28,657 nt of DNA. Source: a virus. The position numbers and the translations under genes are program-made. Every line of letters starts with the position of its first letter. Position 1 is the first letter of the stretch. The stretch is from the UHGV virus genome UHGV-0074437; one strand, written 5' to 3'. The notes under the pieces are model-generated. The model did no database searches. It saw nothing but the letters and a program-made list of their open reading frames with translations, and was not told the DNA's origin. Of this stretch, positions 364 through 27,141 are shown piece after piece.

Positions 364-548
364 ACGCCACAATTCAAACGATACCAGAGCTGCTTATACA
401 GGCACGAGGCAATCAGACCGAAGTGGCGAGGATGCTTTCCTGCGCAAGAGGAACAGTGCTCAAGTACAACCGAGACAGCAAAGGTGAGCGTCACGTAATA
501 GTTAACGGCGTCCTGATGGTCAAACAGGGAAAGAGGGGAAGACGATGA
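360..548 (+). CDS. ninH: NinH-like small DNA-binding protein
   Basis: 62-aa ORF overlapping the rusA stop by 4 nt (ATGA); motif GNQTEVARMLSCARGTVLKY...HVIVNGVLMV resembles lambda NinH as recalled; position immediately before Q. Confidence 0.65.
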   Translation: MNATIQTIPELLIQARGNQTEVARMLSCARGTVLKYNRDSKGERHVIVNGVLMVKQGKRGRR

Positions 549-1168
549 GACTCGAAAGCGTAGCTAAATTTCATTCGCCAAAAAGCCCAATGATGAGCGA
601 CTCACCACGGGCTACGGCTTCTGACTCTCTTTCCGGTACTGATGTGATGGCTGCTATGGGGATGGCGCAATCACAAGCCGGATTCGGTATGGCTGCATTC
701 TGCGGTAAGCATGAACTCAGCCAGAACGACAAACAAAAGGCTATCAACTATCTGATGCAATTTGCACACAAGGTATCGGGGAAATACCGTGGTGTGGCAA
801 AGCTCGAAGGAAATACTAAGGCAAAGGTACTGCAAGTGCTCGCAACATTCGCTTATGCGGATTATTGCCGTAGTGCCGCGACGCCGGGTGCAAGATGCAG
901 AGATTGCCACGGTACAGGCCGTGCGGTTGATATAGCCAAAACAGAGCAGTGGGGGAGAGTTGTTGAGAAAGAGTGCGGAAGATGCAAAGGTGTCGGCTAT
1001 TCAAGAATGCCAGCAAGCGCCGCATATCGCGCTGTAACGATGCTAATCCCAAACCTTACTCAACCCACCTGGTCACGCACTGTTAAGCCGCTGTATGACG
1101 CTCTGGTGGTGCAATGCCACAAGGAAGAGTCAATCGCAGACAACATTTTGAATGCGGTCACACGTTAG
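545..1168 (+). CDS. Q: Late-gene antiterminator Q (lambda Q type)
   Basis: 207-aa ORF, 4-nt overlap with upstream gene; zinc-binding CxxC...CxxC pair (CRDCHG...CGRCKG); sequence appears essentially identical to lambda Q from memory; followed by a PR'-like promoter and terminator. Confidence 0.9.
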   Translation: MRLESVAKFHSPKSPMMSDSPRATASDSLSGTDVMAAMGMAQSQAGFGMAAFCGKHELSQNDKQKAINYLMQFAHKVSGKYRGVAKLEGNTKAKVLQVLATFAYADYCRSAATPGARCRDCHGTGRAVDIAKTEQWGRVVEKECGRCKGVGYSRMPASAAYRAVTMLIPNLTQPTWSRTVKPLYDALVVQCHKEESIADNILNAVTR

Positions 1169-1210: not shown

Positions 1211-1250
1211 TTGACTTTTTGAATAAAGTTGGGTAAATTTGACTCAACGA
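1211..1250 (+). promoter_or_regulatory. Late promoter PR' with presumed qut region (-35 TTGACT 1211-1216, 17-nt spacer, -10 TAAATT 1234-1239)
   Basis: Near-consensus sigma70 hexamers with 17-nt spacing located 43 nt after the Q stop, where lambda PR'/qut lies; the surrounding sequence (TTGGGTAAATTTGACTCAACGATGG) resembles the lambda PR' region as recalled. Confidence 0.6.
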
Positions 1251-1272
1251 TGGATAAATGCACTCGTTAAAT

Positions 1273-1310
1273 AAAGCCCTGAGTTAATAGCTCGGGGCTT
1301 TTTGCGTTTT
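1273..1310 (+). terminator. Intrinsic terminator of the short PR' leader transcript (tR'-like)
   Basis: Hairpin AAAGCCCTGAG / CTCGGGGCTTT (8-bp GC-rich stem with one G-U pair, 7-nt loop) followed by TTTTTGCGTTTT, about 30-35 nt downstream of the predicted PR' start. Confidence 0.6.
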
Positions 1311-1530
1311 AATCACGACCTTTCTGAAAGCACATCAAACCAAATACCAGACAGACAAAAATAATCACCTTATCCGCTGTGGCTACGGTGCGGTGTGCTT
1401 TGCATAAAAGAAAACCAGCGCAATGGCTGGCTTCGTGAAAGCGGGTGGCAAGAGGTTGCGCTAACAACCTCCTGCCGTTTTGCCCTTATTCCTAATTAAA
1501 TAGAGCAAATCCCCTTATTGGGGGTAAGAC

Positions 1531-2931: not shown

Positions 2932-3483
2932 ATGAATGATATTTCTATCGAATATCTGAAAGAAGCACTGGAATACACACCAGATTCAGGTGTTATCCGT
3001 TGGAAGCAGCGCCCCAAAAATCATTTTAAGACCGATAATTCTTGGCGGGCGACCAATGCCAATTTTGCCGGAAAGGTGGCAGGCGCACGTGATAATGATG
3101 GATATTTCCGCATCGGAATAGATGGTCGGTTATATAGATCTCATCGTGTCGCCTGGGCGTTACATTATGGCTATTGGCCTGAGAATGAGATTGATCACAT
3201 TTCAGGCGATAGAGGTGATAACCGCATAGACAACCTCCGAACAGTGACTTCGGCAGCCAACAACAAGAATTTGCGCCTTTACTCCACTAATAAAACAGGT
3301 GTCCCTGGCGTAGGTTGGTATAAAGCACGTGGGAAGTGGAGAGCAAAGATAAACGTCTCTGGAAAGGTGAAGCATATTGGTTACTTCGATGATTTCTGTG
3401 AAGCGGTGAAAGCAAGAAAGGCTGCTGAGATGAAATTGCAATATCACGAAAATCACGGAGCCGGCGACAGGCTCACTTTCTAA
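2932..3483 (+). CDS. HNH homing-type endonuclease with a C-terminal AP2-like DNA-binding domain
   Basis: 183-aa ORF; HNH_3-like motif HRVAWALHYGYWPENEIDHISGDRGDNRIDNLR followed by an AP2-like segment GVPGVGWYKARGKWRAKINVSGKVKHIGYFDDFCEAVKARKAAE; RBS-like AAAGG upstream. Confidence 0.75.
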   Translation: MNDISIEYLKEALEYTPDSGVIRWKQRPKNHFKTDNSWRATNANFAGKVAGARDNDGYFRIGIDGRLYRSHRVAWALHYGYWPENEIDHISGDRGDNRIDNLRTVTSAANNKNLRLYSTNKTGVPGVGWYKARGKWRAKINVSGKVKHIGYFDDFCEAVKARKAAEMKLQYHENHGAGDRLTF

Positions 3484-4446: not shown

Positions 4447-4944
4447 ATGGCAAAGCTCACCGACAAACAAGAGCTGTTTGCCCATCCGGATGATGTGTAT
4501 GTCGGAGAGTGTGTGATTTATACCGGCTACATAAATAAGCGAGGGTATGGGCAGAAGCACATTTCACGAAAGCCGCACTACGCACATCGAATCGCATACT
4601 GCGAAGCTAACGGAATTTCGCTAGATAGCATCAAGGACCTGGTTGTTAGGCATAAATGCGATAATCCATCATGCGTGAATCCTGACCATCTGATTATAGG
4701 TACTGTCGCTGACAATAATCGTGACAGGTCAAGGCGAGGCAGAAACTCATACCCTGACCGTTCAGGTGAAAAGAACGGAATGGCGAAATTAAAAGAGTGC
4801 GATGTCATCTGCATTCGACGTGAATATGTCCGCGGGAGCATTGGTAGGGGGCTTAGATCCTTATCAGAGAAATATGGCGTATCGACGACCATGATTGCTG
4901 ACATCGTTAATTATAGAAATTGGAGCAACGTTTCGGGGGTGTGA
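4447..4944 (+). CDS. HNH endonuclease (terminase-associated type)
   Basis: 165-aa ORF; motif HRIAYCEANG...RHKCDNPSCVNPDHLIIGTVADNNRD, typical of zinc-binding HNH endonucleases; located immediately upstream of the terminase small subunit, the usual position for HNH proteins that assist terminase cleavage. Confidence 0.8.
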   Translation: MAKLTDKQELFAHPDDVYVGECVIYTGYINKRGYGQKHISRKPHYAHRIAYCEANGISLDSIKDLVVRHKCDNPSCVNPDHLIIGTVADNNRDRSRRGRNSYPDRSGEKNGMAKLKECDVICIRREYVRGSIGRGLRSLSEKYGVSTTMIADIVNYRNWSNVSGV

Positions 4945-14871: not shown

Positions 14872-16032
14872 ATGGCACAGGGCTTACCTGTATCCAACGT
14901 TGTAAACGTTGATGTGATCATCTCGCCGAAAGCGGCTACTGGTCGTAACTTCGGCGCGCTGCTGATCCTCGGCTCTTCCACTGTCATTCCGGTGCAGGAA
15001 CGCATTCGCCTTTATGCGTCCGTTGAGGACATTGGCGAGGACTTCGGAGTCGACAGCCCGGAATATGAAGCGGCGCAGGTTTTCTTCAGCCAGTCACCGA
15101 AGCCGACACAGGTTTATGTTGGTCGCTGGGCGAAGACGCTGAGTTCTTCCGAGAGTGGAGATACTGAAACTATCGTGCAAGCCGTTAATGCCTGCCTGCA
15201 ATATACCAACTGGTATGGGCTGGTTGTCGCTGATGATGTTGTCGCTGGTGGCGATGTGCTTGATGCTGATGACGTGATTGAGGTCGCCAAACTTATTGAA
15301 GCGTCCAGCCTTAGCCGTATCTTTGGTGTGACCTCTGCCGACGCCGAGATTATCAGCACGACTTCGACGACCGATGTTGCGTCGAAATTAAAGGCTGGCA
15401 AGTATTCCCGTACCTTTGTTCAGTATTCCACCAGCAGCCCTTATGCGGCTGTTTCAGCTTTCGGTCGCGCGTTTACTGTCAATTTCAACGGCAGCAATAC
15501 CACCATTACCCTGAAATTCAAACAGGAACCGAGCGTAACCTACGAAACGCTGACGGTAGGACAGGCGGCGGCTGTGGATGCGAAGAATGCGAACGTGTTC
15601 GTGTACTACGCCAACGACACGGCGATCCTGCAACAGGGCGTCATGGCGAACGGTGACTTCTTCGACGAGCGCCACGGGCTCGACTGGTTGCAGAACTACG
15701 TTCAGACCAACCTCTATAACCTGCTTTACACCAGCACCACCAAAATTCCGCAGACTGATGCCGGTGTGACCCGTCTGCTTTCCAACGTTGAACAGTCCAT
15801 GGATCAGTCCGTCACGAACGGTCTGGTAGCGGCTGGCGTGTGGAATGGTGGACCTATCGGACAGCTGAATTCCGGCGATACGCTGACCAAAGGTTATTAC
15901 GTGTATGCGCAACCTCTTTCAGAACAGGCGCAGGCCGACCGAGAAGCTCGCAAAGCACCGTTAATTCAGGTGGCCTGTAAGCTGGCTGGCGCAGTTCATT
16001 ATGCCGATGTGCAGATCAACGTAGTTCGCTAA
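14872..16032 (+). CDS. Putative tail sheath protein (DUF3383-like as recalled)
   Basis: 386-aa ORF with GGAG RBS, first gene of the tail block, followed by a tube-sized gene, chaperone and tape measure: the sheath position in contractile-tail phages. Confidence 0.5.
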
Positions 16033-16042
16033 GGAGCGATAA

Positions 16043-20035: not shown

Positions 20036-21106
20036 ATGTCTCTTAACTGGATGCGCCATTTTGAGTTGCAGCTGTTGGACCAGAACGGGCAGGGCGTTTC
20101 CCTGTCTGACTTTAAGGTCACATTCCAGATCGAGTGGGCAGACACACGCTGGCCGCGCGTGGCTAACGTAAAGGTCTATAACCTTTCTACCACCACCACT
20201 AATAAGATCCTTGGGCAGGAGTTTGCCAAAATTCGCATCATTGCCGGGTATGACGGTATAGCGCCGGATGTTGATGCGAGCCAGGTTGGTGTGTCCCGGG
20301 AGATTTCACCAGACCAGATAGGGCAGGTGAACGGTCAGAACTACGGCCTGATTTTTGACGGTGATATTCGCTTCACCGTCACCGGGAAGGACAACATTAC
20401 GGATTCCTGGGTGTTGATTCAGGCCATTGGTGATCACGAAGCGTTCCTCTATGCGACCACCATCACCACGCTTGCCGCTGGCTATACCGTTGCGGACCTG
20501 CACCGGGCGACGATGCAGGATTTCAACGCGTTCGGCGTGACACAGGGCATTACCGGCGATTTTCCTGATACCGTGTTTCCTCGTGGCCGCGCGATTTACT
20601 CATCCAGCCGCAACGTGATGGATAATATTGCTGCGCAGTGCAAAGCGACATGGCAACTGGTGGATGGTCAGGTCCAGATGGTGCCGGAGGATAAATATAT
20701 TCACGAAGCCATTGTGTTGAATGCCGATACTGGCCTGATCGGTATGCCGCAACAAACGATGGGCGGCGGCGTAAACGTGCGGTGTCTGATAAACCCGAAC
20801 ATCCGCATTAATGGTCTTATCCAGCTCGATCAGGCTTCGGTGTACCGCGCGACAGTTGGCAACTCCGATATTGCGCAGTCGCTTGGGCGGATCGGGACGT
20901 CTGTATATAATGGGAACATCGAAAGTGACACGTTACCCAGCAAACAACAGGCTGCCAGCATTGCGACAGATGGCGTTTATATCGTCAAAGCTATCGACTA
21001 TACTGGTGACACCAGAGGTCAGGCGTGGTACATGGATTTGATGTGTTTTGCGCGTGGGGCTCGTGATCTTTATAGCCCGAAAGCAATGCAAGGGACGACG
21101 AATTAG
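20036..21106 (+). CDS. Putative baseplate hub protein (Mu gp44 / P2 gpD-like by position)
   Basis: 356-aa ORF with AGGAG RBS, upstream of the spike V, W-like and J genes, matching the Mu-type baseplate gene order as recalled. Confidence 0.5.
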   Translation: MSLNWMRHFELQLLDQNGQGVSLSDFKVTFQIEWADTRWPRVANVKVYNLSTTTTNKILGQEFAKIRIIAGYDGIAPDVDASQVGVSREISPDQIGQVNGQNYGLIFDGDIRFTVTGKDNITDSWVLIQAIGDHEAFLYATTITTLAAGYTVADLHRATMQDFNAFGVTQGITGDFPDTVFPRGRAIYSSSRNVMDNIAAQCKATWQLVDGQVQMVPEDKYIHEAIVLNADTGLIGMPQQTMGGGVNVRCLINPNIRINGLIQLDQASVYRATVGNSDIAQSLGRIGTSVYNGNIESDTLPSKQQAASIATDGVYIVKAIDYTGDTRGQAWYMDLMCFARGARDLYSPKAMQGTTN

Positions 21107-21118
21107 TGAGGTGGGGCC

Positions 21119-21463
21119 GTGAGACATTTACTTTGCACTGTTACCGTGTTCGCGGTGCTTATATCAGCACCAGCTTTTGCGGATCAGCAATGTGGTGATT
21201 TTAAAATCCATTGGGCAGATGATGGCTTAGCCAGAATCAATGGCGCAAAGCCAGAAATGCAAAAAATCACCTTCCTGAAAAACAAAGGCGATTATAACAA
21301 TATCAAGATGGATTGGCGTATGGCTACCGATCAGCCTGGAAGATGGGTTGGTCTTGAGTACATCAATCGAAACGGCAAGATAATTCTCAATGCCCAGTGG
21401 CTGCAAGCCAGCATGAATGCGCCGCGTCAGTATGCAACATACGACTGCCGAAAAGTAAAATAG
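21119..21463 (+). CDS. Small secreted (periplasmic) protein of unknown function; moron candidate
   Basis: 114-aa ORF with GTG start at 21119 and GAGGTGGGG RBS; clear Sec signal peptide (hydrophobic core, AFA-DQQ cleavage site); two cysteines in the mature part; region is markedly AT-rich relative to the flanking structural genes. Confidence 0.55.
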   Translation: MRHLLCTVTVFAVLISAPAFADQQCGDFKIHWADDGLARINGAKPEMQKITFLKNKGDYNNIKMDWRMATDQPGRWVGLEYINRNGKIILNAQWLQASMNAPRQYATYDCRKVK

Positions 21464-21481
21464 CCCGCCAGATAGGCGGGC
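21463..21481 (-). terminator. Intrinsic terminator for the minus-strand moron gene
   Basis: Perfect 7-bp GC stem GCCCGCC-agata-GGCGGGC; a U-rich tract follows on the minus strand (plus-strand AAAAGTAAAATA at 21450-21462), whereas no T-tract follows on the plus strand. Confidence 0.55.
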
Positions 21482-21486
21482 ATGCG

Positions 21487-21777
21487 TCAAAAATATTGAG
21501 CTTTAATTATAATAAACACAATAATTACGAACAGGATGTTTCTAATTATTTTTTGCTTATGAGTAAGTTGTTTTTTTTCTGTCGATTTCCCGGGAGAGTA
21601 AAGGTTAGTGGTATGCGACAGCCCCGTGCCGGGAAGGCCATTTGTCATCTTTACGCCTTTTTTCCCGATGTTAATGGTGGAACCTTTACCACCAATTGAA
21701 GTGCTTACTCCGCTTTTGCTAATGTTGATCGCGAGTCCGGGCGCAATCCGGATTCTTTTGCGAAATCTAAAGCCCAT
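21487..21777 (-). CDS. Small membrane-anchored protein, DUF4236-like N-terminus (as recalled) with C-terminal transmembrane helix; moron candidate
   Basis: 96-aa ORF on the strand opposite to the whole structural operon; strong RBS AGGAG 6 nt before the ATG; Gly/Lys/Ser-rich N-terminal segment GFRFRKRIRIAPGLAINISKSGVSTSIGGKGSTINIGKKGV; C-terminal hydrophobic helix NILFVIIVFIIII; AT-rich codon usage. Confidence 0.55.
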   Translation of the reverse strand: MGFRFRKRIRIAPGLAINISKSGVSTSIGGKGSTINIGKKGVKMTNGLPGTGLSHTTNLYSPGKSTEKKQLTHKQKIIRNILFVIIVFIIIKAQYF

Positions 21778-21964
21778 TTGTTACTCCTGTAGTCAAGAAT
21801 GCGATGGTGCAGGTCCACTCTATGGCGGCTTCATGGCTGAAATTGATTTTTAATGCTTACTTGTTGCAAATATATCCTAATACACCTTGTGAATATGTGC
21901 CATTGCAGCGGAAAAGCCTTACTTCACACTGATGTAGCTTAGTTACTAAGAGATAATTGATACC

Positions 21965-21990
21965 AAACCAGCTTCGGCTGGTTTTTTTAT
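21965..21990 (+). terminator. Intrinsic terminator (UUCG-loop hairpin plus T7 tract) immediately upstream of the baseplate spike gene
   Basis: AAACCAGC-ttcg-GCTGGTTT followed by TTTTTTT, then GGGG and the ATG at 22000; no annotated plus-strand gene ends here. Confidence 0.55.
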
Positions 21991-21999
21991 GGGGTTTTT

Positions 22000-22740
22000 A
22001 TGCCAATTCCTACTCAATCACAGATCGGCGGCGAGCAGCAGACCGCGCAGGCCATTGCCGATTCGGTGTCTACTCAGATGCGCGTAGCGATGCCTGGCAT
22101 CATTCAGTCGTTCGATCCTGACGCTGTAACCTGCACAGTAGAGGTGGCGCTTCGCGGTATTGTTGGCGACGACTCCACCGAATTAAAACCGCTGGTGGAT
22201 GTGCCTGCCATCTTCCCGCGCGGAGGCGGTTGCACGCTGACCTTTCCGGTAAAAGAAGGAGATGAGTGCCTGCTGATCTTTGCCGACCGTTGCATCGATT
22301 TCTGGTGGCAGAGCGGCGGCGTTCAGGAGACCGTCGACCCGCGCCAGCATGACTTATCTGATGCGTTCGCCATCGTTGGCCCGCAGTCGCAAGCGCAAAA
22401 AATCAGCGGTATCAGTACCAGCGCCGCGCAGCTGCGAACCGATGATGGTGCGGCGTTCGTAGAGGTTTCCGCAGGACATAACATCACCGTTCAAACACCG
22501 GGCCAGCTCACGGCTACGGCTGAAGGTGGAACGACAATCACATCCCCGACTATCACGCTGAACGGCAACGTAACGATTAATGGCAATCTGTCTCAGGGAA
22601 TGGGAGAAAGTGGTGGTACTGCGACGATGCTTGGGCCGGTTACGGTAACGAATGATGTGACAGCTTCAGGTATAAGTGTCGCCACGCATAAACATGGCGG
22701 AGTTCAGACAGGCGGGGGAACTACTGGAGGGCCGCAATAA
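22000..22740 (+). CDS. Baseplate spike / assembly protein V-like (Mu gp45 type)
   Basis: 246-aa ORF; N-terminal OB-fold-like region then a Gly/Thr-rich repetitive C-terminus (TITSPTITLNGNVTINGNLSQG...), typical of gpV/gp5-type spikes; followed by W-like and J genes. Confidence 0.7.
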   Translation: MPIPTQSQIGGEQQTAQAIADSVSTQMRVAMPGIIQSFDPDAVTCTVEVALRGIVGDDSTELKPLVDVPAIFPRGGGCTLTFPVKEGDECLLIFADRCIDFWWQSGGVQETVDPRQHDLSDAFAIVGPQSQAQKISGISTSAAQLRTDDGAAFVEVSAGHNITVQTPGQLTATAEGGTTITSPTITLNGNVTINGNLSQGMGESGGTATMLGPVTVTNDVTASGISVATHKHGGVQTGGGTTGGPQ

Positions 22741-25977: not shown

Positions 25978-27141
25978 CTATCTGGCTTGAGATATTGAAA
26001 TAGATTTTGTTTTCCGCCCATACATCAAACGGCTAAGCGATATAGATGGGTTATCTATAAGCTTTGTAAATAAATGTGCTATTATTATGCTTGTGGGAAT
26101 CGTAAACACCCATACATAAATTGGGCTGTATTTATATAGTAAAAGTAACCCTATAGAAAGAATTGTATAATGTATAAGGTATAGCGAGAAAGATATTCTC
26201 CCAAGATAAAGACCAACAGACAGGAACTTACCCTCTTTTAATTTAAGTGAGCACACGATTAATCCAACGGCACCGATAGATGTCACAATATCACCAAGAC
26301 CTCTGTGTGATAAAGTCCATCCATTATTAAATGGGTAGCAATACAGCATTAAAGAAATTATCACCAGCAGGAATATGATTTTCTTGTCTATATTATTCAT
26401 TATTTCATTAGTTCTTTTCACATTTAAAGCAAGGTATGCACCAATTGTAAAAAATAACGAGTAATGAACTGTTAACAGGCTTGAGCTTAGGGGGTCTATA
26501 CCGTATAGATGCGGTTTAGAGTTCATGATAAATATACTAAGCATCGATGCCAACAAGGATAGCAGCACAAAGCGAAAGCCAAGTTTTTTCGTAAAGTACA
26601 GAATTAAAGGAAACGCTATCGAAATTCTAGCCTCGTAAACTAAGGACCATGCTGGAGGGTTTATTTCGAAGTAATTGTAAAACCCCAGCATGCCAATGTG
26701 ATTAACTATTGTTGCTAGATTGAAGTCTGGTTTTGCTACGCCCATCCATCCTTTTTCCCAGGAAAAACCACTTGATTTCATGACTGCAAAGACAATAGCC
26801 ACAAATAATAATGATGCAATGAATGGAATGTATAGGCGAGCTACCCTGGCTAACAGATATCTAAACATATTAAATGGATTTGCTGAGTTGATCATCATTG
26901 TTAAAGCAAACCCACTCAACACAAAGAAAACAATAACAGCTTGATGTCCAGCCCACAGAAAGCGAAATGGTGACCATTCAAGATACGGCCAGATAGTGGG
27001 GTTGTTATATAATCCAGCAACGGTTGTGTGAGCAAGCAAAACCGTTAGAGCAGCATAACCCCTAACTGCATCAAGAGATGGGATTCGTTTTGTATCTTTC
27101 ATTACTATTCTCATTTTAGTTTGTTGAGTCAATACTAACAT
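25978..27141 (-). CDS. Acyltransferase family 3 integral membrane protein (putative O-antigen / LPS O-acetyltransferase, lysogenic-conversion type)
   Basis: Minus-strand ORF with about 10 predicted transmembrane segments; N-terminal region KRIPSLDAVRGYAALTVLLAHT...FFVLSGFALT matches the acyltransferase_3 (OafA/Oac-type) signature; strongly AT-rich. Three candidate in-frame ATG starts (27141, 27114, 27102); the third gives MKDTKRIP, the usual N-terminus for this family. Confidence 0.8.
   Translation of the reverse strand: MLVLTQQTKMRIVMKDTKRIPSLDAVRGYAALTVLLAHTTVAGLYNNPTIWPYLEWSPFRFLWAGHQAVIVFFVLSGFALTMMINSANPFNMFRYLLARVARLYIPFIASLLFVAIVFAVMKSSGFSWEKGWMGVAKPDFNLATIVNHIGMLGFYNYFEINPPAWSLVYEARISIAFPLILYFTKKLGFRFVLLSLLASMLSIFIMNSKPHLYGIDPLSSSLLTVHYSLFFTIGAYLALNVKRTNEIMNNIDKKIIFLLVIISLMLYCYPFNNGWTLSHRGLGDIVTSIGAVGLIVCSLKLKEGKFLSVGLYLGRISFSLYLIHYTILSIGLLLLYKYSPIYVWVFTIPTSIIIAHLFTKLIDNPSISLSRLMYGRKTKSISISQAR

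Follow-up and report, generated by a model that had tools for sequence, protein, structure and literature searches.

In phage P22, the immI island lies inside the late operon. Its genes sieA, orf59a and mnt are read leftward and arc and ant rightward, and it also encodes the antisense RNA sar. The island is followed by the ant terminator, annotated at 16012-16035, and then by the tailspike gene 9. Casjens and colleagues described this region as an "ant moron" 5' of the tailspike gene (PMC2629481), and a passage of that article, citing Adams, Brown and Casjens (1985), states that the ant moron influences how often late transcription reaches gene 9. The classical definition of a moron, which comes from HK97 and HK022, goes back to Juhala et al. 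(2000) and Hendrix et al. (2000), as quoted in passages of PMC2629481 and PMC3851460. In phage L, terminators inside operons are common and were suggested either to attenuate transcription or to stop that which lacks gp23/gp24 modification (PMC8022706). Here, we analyzed an intrinsic (Rho-independent) terminator located at positions 21965-21990 of virus genome UHGV-0074437, immediately upstream of the gene encoding the baseplate spike. All coordinates refer to this stretch of 28,657 nucleotides (nt), hereafter called the window.

The window corresponds to a lambdoid SEN34/Brunovirus-like myovirus prophage. We propose that the terminator is probably the right-hand seal of a moron or cargo slot in the Q-controlled late tail operon, acting as an insulator that would be read through by Q-modified polymerase. 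The slot is located between the baseplate hub gene, together with a conserved gene encoding a protein of 114 amino acids (aa), and the spike gene. In the window, it carries a minus-strand gene encoding a DUF4236 protein. This is a known design in a new instance and not a new RNA gene, and the P22 ant terminator in front of gene 9 is its closest counterpart. In both phages, an accessory island with genes on both strands sits in a lambdoid late operon directly 5' of a host-contact tail gene and is closed by a plus-strand intrinsic terminator, which antiterminated late transcription crosses in P22 and would cross in the window. Furthermore, in two related loci (L091 and L131), the slot harbors two Arc-like genes and a Bro-N/P22_AR_C gene, and the L091 terminator is 96% identical to that of the window. 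The parallel is thus closer than an analogy of layout, since the terminator of the window is homologous to the one closing the Arc/Arc/antirepressor island of L091. However, the P22 gene is a podovirus tailspike and the window gene a contractile-tail myovirus baseplate spike, the backbone genes are unrelated, and the hairpin lies about 170 nt from the ATG in P22 compared to 15 nt in the window. In addition, the window island has no arc, mnt, ant or sar, only the DUF4236 gene and a 36-nt relic of another gene, and is therefore not itself an immI island of the P22 type.

The locus also resembles the morons of lambdoid phages (HK97/HK022, lambda bor and lom). These are likewise extra genes between late genes that are adjacent in related phages, they have an atypical composition and a factor-independent terminator, and they are tolerated through Q-modified read-through. 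The GC content of 21400-21999 (0.385-0.47, compared to 0.51-0.60 in the flanking tail genes) is typical of morons. In the window island, no own promoter was detected above background. Unlike in these morons, the slot is unusually diverse (61 clusters of open reading frames [ORFs] in our sample), and the terminator of this family persists in loci without cargo. Lambda tR' and the terminators of phage L are similar in being canonical in lying inside an operon with a single Q- or gp23-dependent late promoter, and in their proposed role of halting transcripts initiated elsewhere than at that promoter (PMC8022706). However, tR' is promoter proximal and defines a 6S-type RNA, whereas the window element lies about 20.7 kb past PR' and is tied to a cargo slot.

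The hairpin upstream of the spike gene is a strong intrinsic terminator

The terminator was supported by its pattern, its folding and its orthologues in related loci, and consists of the following parts.

21965..21990, plus strand: intrinsic (Rho-independent) terminator
21965-72: stem, AAACCAGC
21973-76: UUCG loop
21977-84: stem, GCUGGUUU
21985-90: U-rich tail, UUUUAU

In the DNA, positions 21965-21984 read AAACCAGC-TTCG-GCTGGTTT and are followed by TTTTAT. A pattern scan returned an 8-bp stem with 4 GC pairs, a 4-nt loop and a T-rich tail at 21965. The transcript would contain seven consecutive U residues at 21982-21988, as the stem ends in UUU and UUUUAU comes next. The RNA from 21960 to 21992 folded with a free energy (dG) of -11.3 kcal/mol, compared to -3.8 ± 1.8 kcal/mol for shuffled sequences (200 dinucleotide shuffles; z = -4.08), none of which attained this value. 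The first-pass annotation of this DNA, which was made from the sequence alone, had reported a textbook terminator at 21965-21990, and both the folding and the orthologues described below (130/132 loci) bear this out. We conclude that the hairpin and its U-tract are a real, strong intrinsic terminator that is clearly selected. By its sequence and by analogy with known terminators, RNA 3' ends would be expected to form there in vivo.

A bidirectional terminator at 21965 was ruled out. Indeed, the minus-strand tail of the hairpin (GGUAUC) is not U-rich, so the terminator should be active in the plus direction only. The hairpin is separated from the spike ATG at position 22000 by 15 nt, within which lies a Shine-Dalgarno sequence (GGGG, 21991-21994).

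A terminator precedes the spike gene in nearly all related loci with a spacer

We surveyed a total of 167 loci with spike identities of 50-100%, covering many genera of Enterobacterales (Escherichia, Citrobacter, Salmonella, Enterobacter, Klebsiella, Serratia, Pantoea, Erwinia, Photorhabdus, Xenorhabdus and others). The sample contained 80 genome loci and 80 viral-contig loci with spike homologues, the latter kept out of at least 547 matching viral contigs. It was completed by four close relatives, namely phage Omnitron and three E. coli genomes, and by two other phages. In each locus, the hub gene, the 114-aa gene and the spike gene were placed by tblastn with the window genes, and a terminator was counted if it was canonical and within 70 nt of the spike ATG.

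The loci shared one order, namely, the hub gene, the 114-aa gene, variable cargo of 0 to about 2.4 kb, the terminator and, 15-23 nt further on, the spike ATG. The gap between hub and spike genes ranged from 0 to 2.8 kb, and the last backbone gene (hub or 114-aa gene) abutted the spike gene in 28 loci. Grouped by the length of the spacer, the loci harbored a terminator as follows.

Spacer of at least 120 nt (cargo): terminator in 115/115 loci
Spacer of 25-119 nt: terminator in 15/17 loci
Abutting genes: terminator in 1/28 loci, a chance hairpin inside the coding region

An equivalent terminator was thus found at the same place in 130 of the 132 loci with a spacer of at least 25 nt. As a control, 3,294 random 73-nt segments of the same loci were scanned, and any terminator-like pattern was found in 3.6% and a strong one in 0.7% of them. 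The distance from the end of the hairpin to the ATG was 15-23 nt in 131/134 loci. The orthologous site was occupied by 69 distinct stem-loop sequences. An RNAalifold consensus of 65 distinct sequences gave a 7-bp stem, in which 5 of the 7 pairs showed compensatory changes, with an invariant T-run and the Shine-Dalgarno sequence next to it. Sequence-diverse stem-loops, compensatory pairs, an invariant T-run and a fixed distance together indicate selection for a terminator as such.

In about 27 loci, the last cargo gene lies on the minus strand, and all of them keep the plus-strand terminator. These last genes belong to at least five unrelated families (DUF4236, the EACC1-like family c2, c6/c24, c46 and c51). 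A plus-strand terminator without a plus-strand gene is therefore a recurrent and evidently selected arrangement and not a peculiarity of the window.

The window terminator derives from a displaced cargo gene

The slot of the window and its borders are made up of the following features, the terminator itself excepted.

20036..21106, plus strand: baseplate hub gene, 356 aa, left backbone anchor (Pfam E217_GP41, 25.8 bits, below the cutoff of 27; the SEN34 homologue is annotated as baseplate hub)
21119..21463, plus strand: gene for a 114-aa protein with a Sec-type signal peptide, phrog_3443 (tblastn across related loci)
21463..21481, minus strand: terminator of the DUF4236 gene, GCCCGCC-N5-GGCGGGC, with a U-rich tail on the minus strand only (dG -17.8, z -4.9)
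21487..21777, minus strand: cargo gene for a 96-aa DUF4236 protein (Pfam PF14020, 73.6 bits; in RefSeq, DUF4236 domain-containing protein)
21778..21928, minus strand: upstream region of the DUF4236 gene, with a Shine-Dalgarno sequence AGGAG at 21785-89 (plus-strand coordinates); presumed promoter and 5' untranslated region (UTR)
21929..21964, plus strand: relic of a displaced plus-strand cargo gene, with the last codons (...DVA), the stop codon TAG at 21943-45 and the 3' UTR (identity to L091 and L131)
21991..22740, plus strand: spike gene, 246 aa, right backbone anchor, including the Shine-Dalgarno sequence GGGG at 21991-94 (Pfam spike N-terminal domain, 138.5 bits, and GpV Apex motif)

The first-pass annotation had found no convincing ORF in 21778-21964 and had dismissed the plus-strand ORFs overlapping the minus-strand gene as spurious. 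We agree on both points. In the 222-nt gap between the DUF4236 and spike genes, no ORF is longer than 42 aa, none has a Shine-Dalgarno sequence and none is conserved, and a 29-aa ORF at 21853-21942 merely runs into the stop codon of the relic. The overlapping ORFs are spurious because the minus-strand gene at 21487-21777 is a genuine DUF4236 gene. In addition, RefSeq leaves the gap unannotated in 19/19 E. coli genomes that carry it. The terminator had also been called an orphan, and this was correct insofar as no plus-strand gene ends there in the window. However, the gene that owns the terminator can be seen in the relative L091.

Indeed, window positions 21929-21999 are 95.8% identical to positions -71 to -1 of L091 and 80% identical to the corresponding stretch of L131. 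In both of these loci, this stretch is the end of a plus-strand ORF of 234-260 aa (terminating in ...HGANVA or ...HGADVA), followed by its 3' UTR and the terminator. The ORF closes an immI-like island of the composition Arc-like/Arc-like/Bro-N+P22_AR_C. The window retains ...GATGTAGCTTAG and the stop codon at 21943-45, followed by an L091-like 3' UTR and the hairpin. The homology to L091 stops upstream of 21929, where the upstream region of the DUF4236 gene starts, so that the DUF4236 cassette, on the minus strand, must have taken the place of most of an older plus-strand cargo. Judged by this homology, the window terminator is what was kept of the 3' end of a plus-strand gene from that cargo, and it looks like an orphan in this window only.

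This exact relic and terminator were present in 21 viral contigs, 20 of which carry a DUF4236 gene, with protein identities of 95.8-100%. These are found beside spike alleles of 52-100% identity and 114-aa alleles of 62-100%. The DUF4236 gene, the gap and the terminator are inherited as one module. Within the module, the stem-loop and the T-run were invariant in 16/16 survey loci that carry this hairpin (alignment of 12 distinct sequences). The spacer, in contrast, varied by single-nucleotide polymorphisms, by an 11-nt deletion in the relic 3' UTR (found in four distinct relatives) and by one replaced segment; in L003/LR-71-1, positions 21796-21860 are replaced and 21861-21928 are kept. In the only diverged DUF4236 locus, L018 from Serratia (68% protein identity), the spacer is not related to that of the window, and the position of the hairpin is taken by another terminator.

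Proposed role in the late operon

Three features of the left part of the window bear on late transcription.

545..1168, plus strand: gene for a Q-type late antiterminator (Pfam PF03589 Antiterm, 192.3 bits; phrog_127 anti-termination protein Q-like, E = 6.6e-83)
1211..1311, plus strand: PR'-like late promoter (TTGACT-17-TAAATT at 1211-1239) and tR'-like terminator (13-bp stem at 1273-1301 and U-tract)
2779-2799 (site entered to 2805), plus strand: further strong terminator, after the Rz/spanin gene and upstream of both an HNH/Rha/HNH block and the terminase genes

Genes for RusA and the Q-type antiterminator lie at the left end of the window, followed by the holin, endolysin and spanin cassette. 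The tR'-like hairpin lies about 35 nt past the PR'-like promoter, directly after Q, which is the classical PR'/tR' layout. This pair predicts a short 6S-type RNA of about 60 nt. Plus-strand genes for terminase, head, sheath, tape measure and baseplate come next and extend to an O-antigen acyltransferase gene, which is on the minus strand. Among named phages, the window is most closely related to Citrobacter phage Omnitron (88% DNA identity) and to Salmonella phage SEN34 (genus Brunovirus), and the latter has the same gene order as the window and also encodes a Q-like protein. The late operon of the window thus contains at least three canonical plus-strand terminators (at 1273, 2779 and 21965), the last of them far downstream of PR'.

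RNA polymerase modified at the late promoter by lambda Q, phage 82 Q or P22 gp23 ignores intrinsic terminators for tens of kilobases. By analogy, we propose that polymerase modified by Q at PR' upon induction would ignore the terminators at 1273-1301, 2779-2799 and 21965, so that the spike gene is transcribed. A hidden late promoter between the hairpin and the spike gene was ruled out, as only 15 nt are available. Since these leave no room for a promoter, the spike gene and the genes downstream of it must be transcribed through the terminator. In the lysogen, ordinary RNA polymerase would stop at 21990, and the spike, baseplate and fibre genes would be spared. The transcription to be stopped could originate from the 114-aa gene, whose transcript would run antisense across the DUF4236 gene, from divergent or spurious starts in the AT-rich control region of the DUF4236 gene, or from cryptic promoters within the tail genes. 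For a transcript of the 114-aa gene, 21965 is the first canonical plus-strand terminator downstream, because the hairpin at 21463-21481 has no plus-strand U-tract. Its plus-strand tail is AUGCGUCAAAAAU, which is not canonical for plus-strand transcripts. As for the history of the window, the DUF4236 cassette would have displaced an immI-like Arc/Arc/antirepressor island, leaving behind its last codons, 3' UTR and terminator.

The first-pass annotation had offered two readings of the hairpin, a small noncoding RNA ending there or a terminator that stops nonantiterminated transcription while Q-modified polymerase reads through. The latter agrees with everything that we found, namely, the Q gene, PR', tR', the family-wide terminator rule and the P22 precedent, and by sequence and analogy it is the reading we favor. 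The small RNA, in contrast, found no support. An apparently ownerless signal can therefore be explained by ordinary phage genome architecture and need not be chased as a new RNA. Moreover, the slot offers a clean natural system for the question of how Q antitermination permits the insulation of accessory genes inside late operons.

Points against the insulator and alternative explanations

Several observations weigh against the insulator. On neither strand did we find a promoter above background within the island or upstream of it, so the transcription to be stopped, including any promoter activity of the island, is assumed. Both termination and Q-dependent read-through are deduced from the sequence and from what is known of lambda and P22. 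Moreover, the terminator is present directly 3' of the hub gene in 12 loci that have neither cargo nor the 114-aa gene, and hence it is not simply the terminator of the moron. These cargo-free terminators may represent a "safe harbour" that predates the cargo, the scar of a lost cargo, or a modest lytic attenuator or other backbone function. Finally, the 27 loci with abutting genes that have no terminator indicate that it is dispensable for the phage.

The 12 cargo-free loci also suggest a function for the backbone itself, in which the hairpin would act as a dosage valve. In this scenario, which is compatible with the insulator, even Q-modified polymerase would be partly stopped, and the amounts of spike, baseplate-wedge and fibre mRNA would be lowered relative to those of head, sheath and tube. 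The ant moron region of P22 was reported, in the passage of PMC2629481 mentioned above, to affect late transcription reaching the tailspike gene, and partial termination is among the possible roles of intra-operon terminators (PMC8022706). However, the 27 abutting loci do without a terminator, so fixed attenuation is not required. In addition, genes for the low-copy hub, plug and Dit-like proteins lie upstream of the hairpin, so that its position does not divide high-copy from low-copy virion proteins. It is also established that a lambda-type Q makes polymerase highly resistant to intrinsic terminators. We therefore regard a dosage valve as unlikely. Alternatively, the hairpin could have no function and persist as a neutral passenger of the DUF4236 cassette, left over from the displaced cargo gene. 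Its origin as the 3' end of another gene is indeed shown by the relic homology, and the adjacent relic 3' UTR tolerates an 11-nt deletion. Nevertheless, the stem-loop and T-run are invariant in 16 loci in which the spacer accumulated polymorphisms, an indel and a replacement, all 115 cargo loci keep a terminator, including the approximately 27 with minus-strand last genes, and the stems differ between loci by compensatory changes. Invariance, full retention and compensatory stems speak for selection and not for drift, which makes a neutral leftover quite improbable.

Even less probable, in our view, is a discrete plus-strand small RNA (sRNA) of about 100-150 nt that starts from a promoter at approximately 21840-21900, ends at the terminator and possibly binds Hfq. 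A strong terminator after an AU-rich stretch is found in many Hfq-dependent sRNAs, and a weak isrK-like match covers 21905-21987 (23.4 bits, E = 0.016 in a 1.4-kb search). IsrK (Rfam RF01394), an Hfq-binding sRNA of Salmonella Gifsy-1, is likewise prophage borne and has a terminal hairpin and U-tract after an AU-rich stretch. However, the alignment is carried by the terminator and its score is far below the gathering score of 50 bits, the 5' stems are unsupported, no promoter was found, and the element is not conserved as a unit. The window element is thus not a member of the IsrK family. Other known RNA families were ruled out as well. At the gathering threshold, Rfam returned no match in the whole window, and a permissive search of 21000-22400 returned subthreshold, chance-level matches to isrK (23.4 bits against a threshold of 50), Trp leader (23.3 against 41) and rsmX (19.2 against 56), all of them driven by the terminator. 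As for a promoter, a weak extended -10-like site (TTGATT-19-AAATAT with TG) is present at 21843-21873, with a score of 8.0. The first-pass annotation had seen no convincing sigma-70 promoter, and two scans of 21700-22010 on both strands (a consensus scan and a position-weight matrix with an extended -10 bonus) gave the same answer, with nothing above background. The best matrix scores were 8.0 on the plus strand and 6.7 on the minus strand, compared to a background best of 6.5 ± 2.0 per 300 nt. The -35 element of the best plus-strand site, moreover, lies in the segment that is replaced in L003. Although 21861-21999 are kept in that locus, the putative sRNA body is chimeric, as 21929-21964 are the relic 3' end and 21861-21928 belong to the DUF4236 upstream region, and it tolerates both the 11-nt deletion and the segment replacement. 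The region upstream of the hairpin showed no additional structure, since candidates of 132 nt (21861-21992, z = -0.33) and 88 nt (21905-21992, z = -0.24) folded no better than shuffled sequences. The unrelated spacer and different terminator of the diverged L018 locus also argue against an sRNA, as does the fact that RefSeq annotates no RNA in the gap of the 19 E. coli genomes. Nothing points to a processed or read-through-derived RNA ending at 21990 either.

An additional scenario places the emphasis elsewhere. The terminator and the joint between T-run and Shine-Dalgarno sequence could be a recombination landing pad, that is, a family-wide exchange point at which cargo and terminator move as one cassette. 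In the window, a long plus-strand transcript from the 114-aa gene or from upstream of it, antisense to the DUF4236 gene, could be a cis-antisense regulator or the source of a 3'-end-derived sRNA. We consider this combination about as unlikely as the dosage valve, and the insulator of a moron slot remains the reading we prefer.

A variable cargo hotspot

Crude ORF calling in the spacers of the 115 cargo-bearing loci yielded 192 ORFs in 61 clusters. The cargo includes two kinds of toxin-antitoxin pair (Phd/YefM with Doc/Fic, and a YafO-family toxin with its partner), a superinfection-immunity protein (PF14373), an EACC1-like protein, DUF2335 and several lipoproteins or secreted proteins. A T5orf172 protein was the only one with a match in PADLOC, to the known defence gene PD-Lambda-1 (278 bits); several other cargo proteins that were searched gave none. 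The islands of L091 and L131 consist of a divergent pair of Arc-like repressors (PF03869, 61.9 bits), the Bro-N/P22_AR_C antirepressor and one more gene. Some cargo recurs in sets of two genes (c5, c9 or c28 with c1; c10 with c8; c6 with c14). The type of hairpin covaries with the type of cargo, and the terminator moves with the cassette. Overall, the survey provides, as a by-product, a map of a previously undescribed, highly variable and terminator-sealed cargo hotspot in SEN34/Brunovirus-like prophages of Enterobacterales. With its fixed order of terminator, 15-23 nt and spike ATG, the anchor offers a practical starting point for mining cargo from prophages.

In several loci whose last cargo gene is on the minus strand, a conserved motif, CCTGAYATTTGATCAGTAA, which is an imperfect inverted repeat, abuts the terminator. 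It was found in the last approximately 50 nt before the terminators of L117, L019, L072, L121, L018, L153, L040, L101, L107 and L111. The minus-strand genes linked to it belong to different families (c2, c51 and, in L018, c0). A conserved minus-strand GTGnTAnnnT, possibly an extended -10 element, lies about 45 nt from the motif. ORF calling placed the motif upstream of cargo genes on the minus strand, and we therefore ruled out that a plus-strand gene ends in it. This arrangement may serve different inverted cargo genes as a common, portable promoter/operator module.

Neighboring genes and other features of the window

The 114-aa gene was detected by tblastn in about 120 loci with identities of 27-100%, always directly 3' of the hub gene. 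By this distribution, it behaves as a backbone gene or an ancient moron and not as variable cargo. In L064, L083 and L151, the pre-spike terminator directly follows its stop codon. In the window, a candidate for a promoter that could feed this gene is located at 20976-21004. The protein has a clear Sec signal peptide (cleavage AFA/DQ) although it is encoded within the baseplate gene block, and it had no match in Pfam or PADLOC. Since a periplasmic protein is improbable as a part of the virion, it may be an ancient moron, for example, one serving exclusion.

In the DUF4236 protein, the domain spans residues 3-55 and is followed by a C-terminal hydrophobic helix (IIRNILFVIIVFIIIKAQYF). Its high conservation (95.8-100%) extends across backbones whose spike proteins are 52-100% identical. 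PADLOC returned no defence match for it, and a literature search on DUF4236 returned one irrelevant mention only. Inside the 3' end of the gene, at 21496-21525 on the plus strand, there is a sigma-70-like site with a 9/12 match (TTGAGC-18-AATAAT). Transcription from this site, if it is active, would yield an RNA of approximately 460 nt that covers the entire DUF4236 gene in antisense and stops at the 21965 terminator. It lies in AT-rich coding sequence and may be due to chance.

Some relatives have a second variable spot directly 3' of the spike gene (3696-3923 in L002, 3491-3718 in L003 and 4257-4496 in L165, which is SEN34). There, the spike gene is set apart from the sheath-initiator/wedge gene either by about 229-240 nt of gap or by a small ORF (SEN34_23, 45 aa), whereas in the window (22740) the two genes overlap by one base. 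Upstream of the terminase, two plus-strand HNH endonuclease genes (2932-3483 and 4447-4944) flank a gene encoding a Rha-like regulator. Cos-type phages often carry an HNH gene beside the terminase; a second copy is unusual. Finally, the minus-strand O-antigen acyltransferase gene mentioned above (25978-27141, Acyl_transf_3, 110 bits) lies downstream of the tail-fibre genes. It is likely a serotype-conversion gene, and its position matches that of the O-acetyltransferase gene of SEN34.

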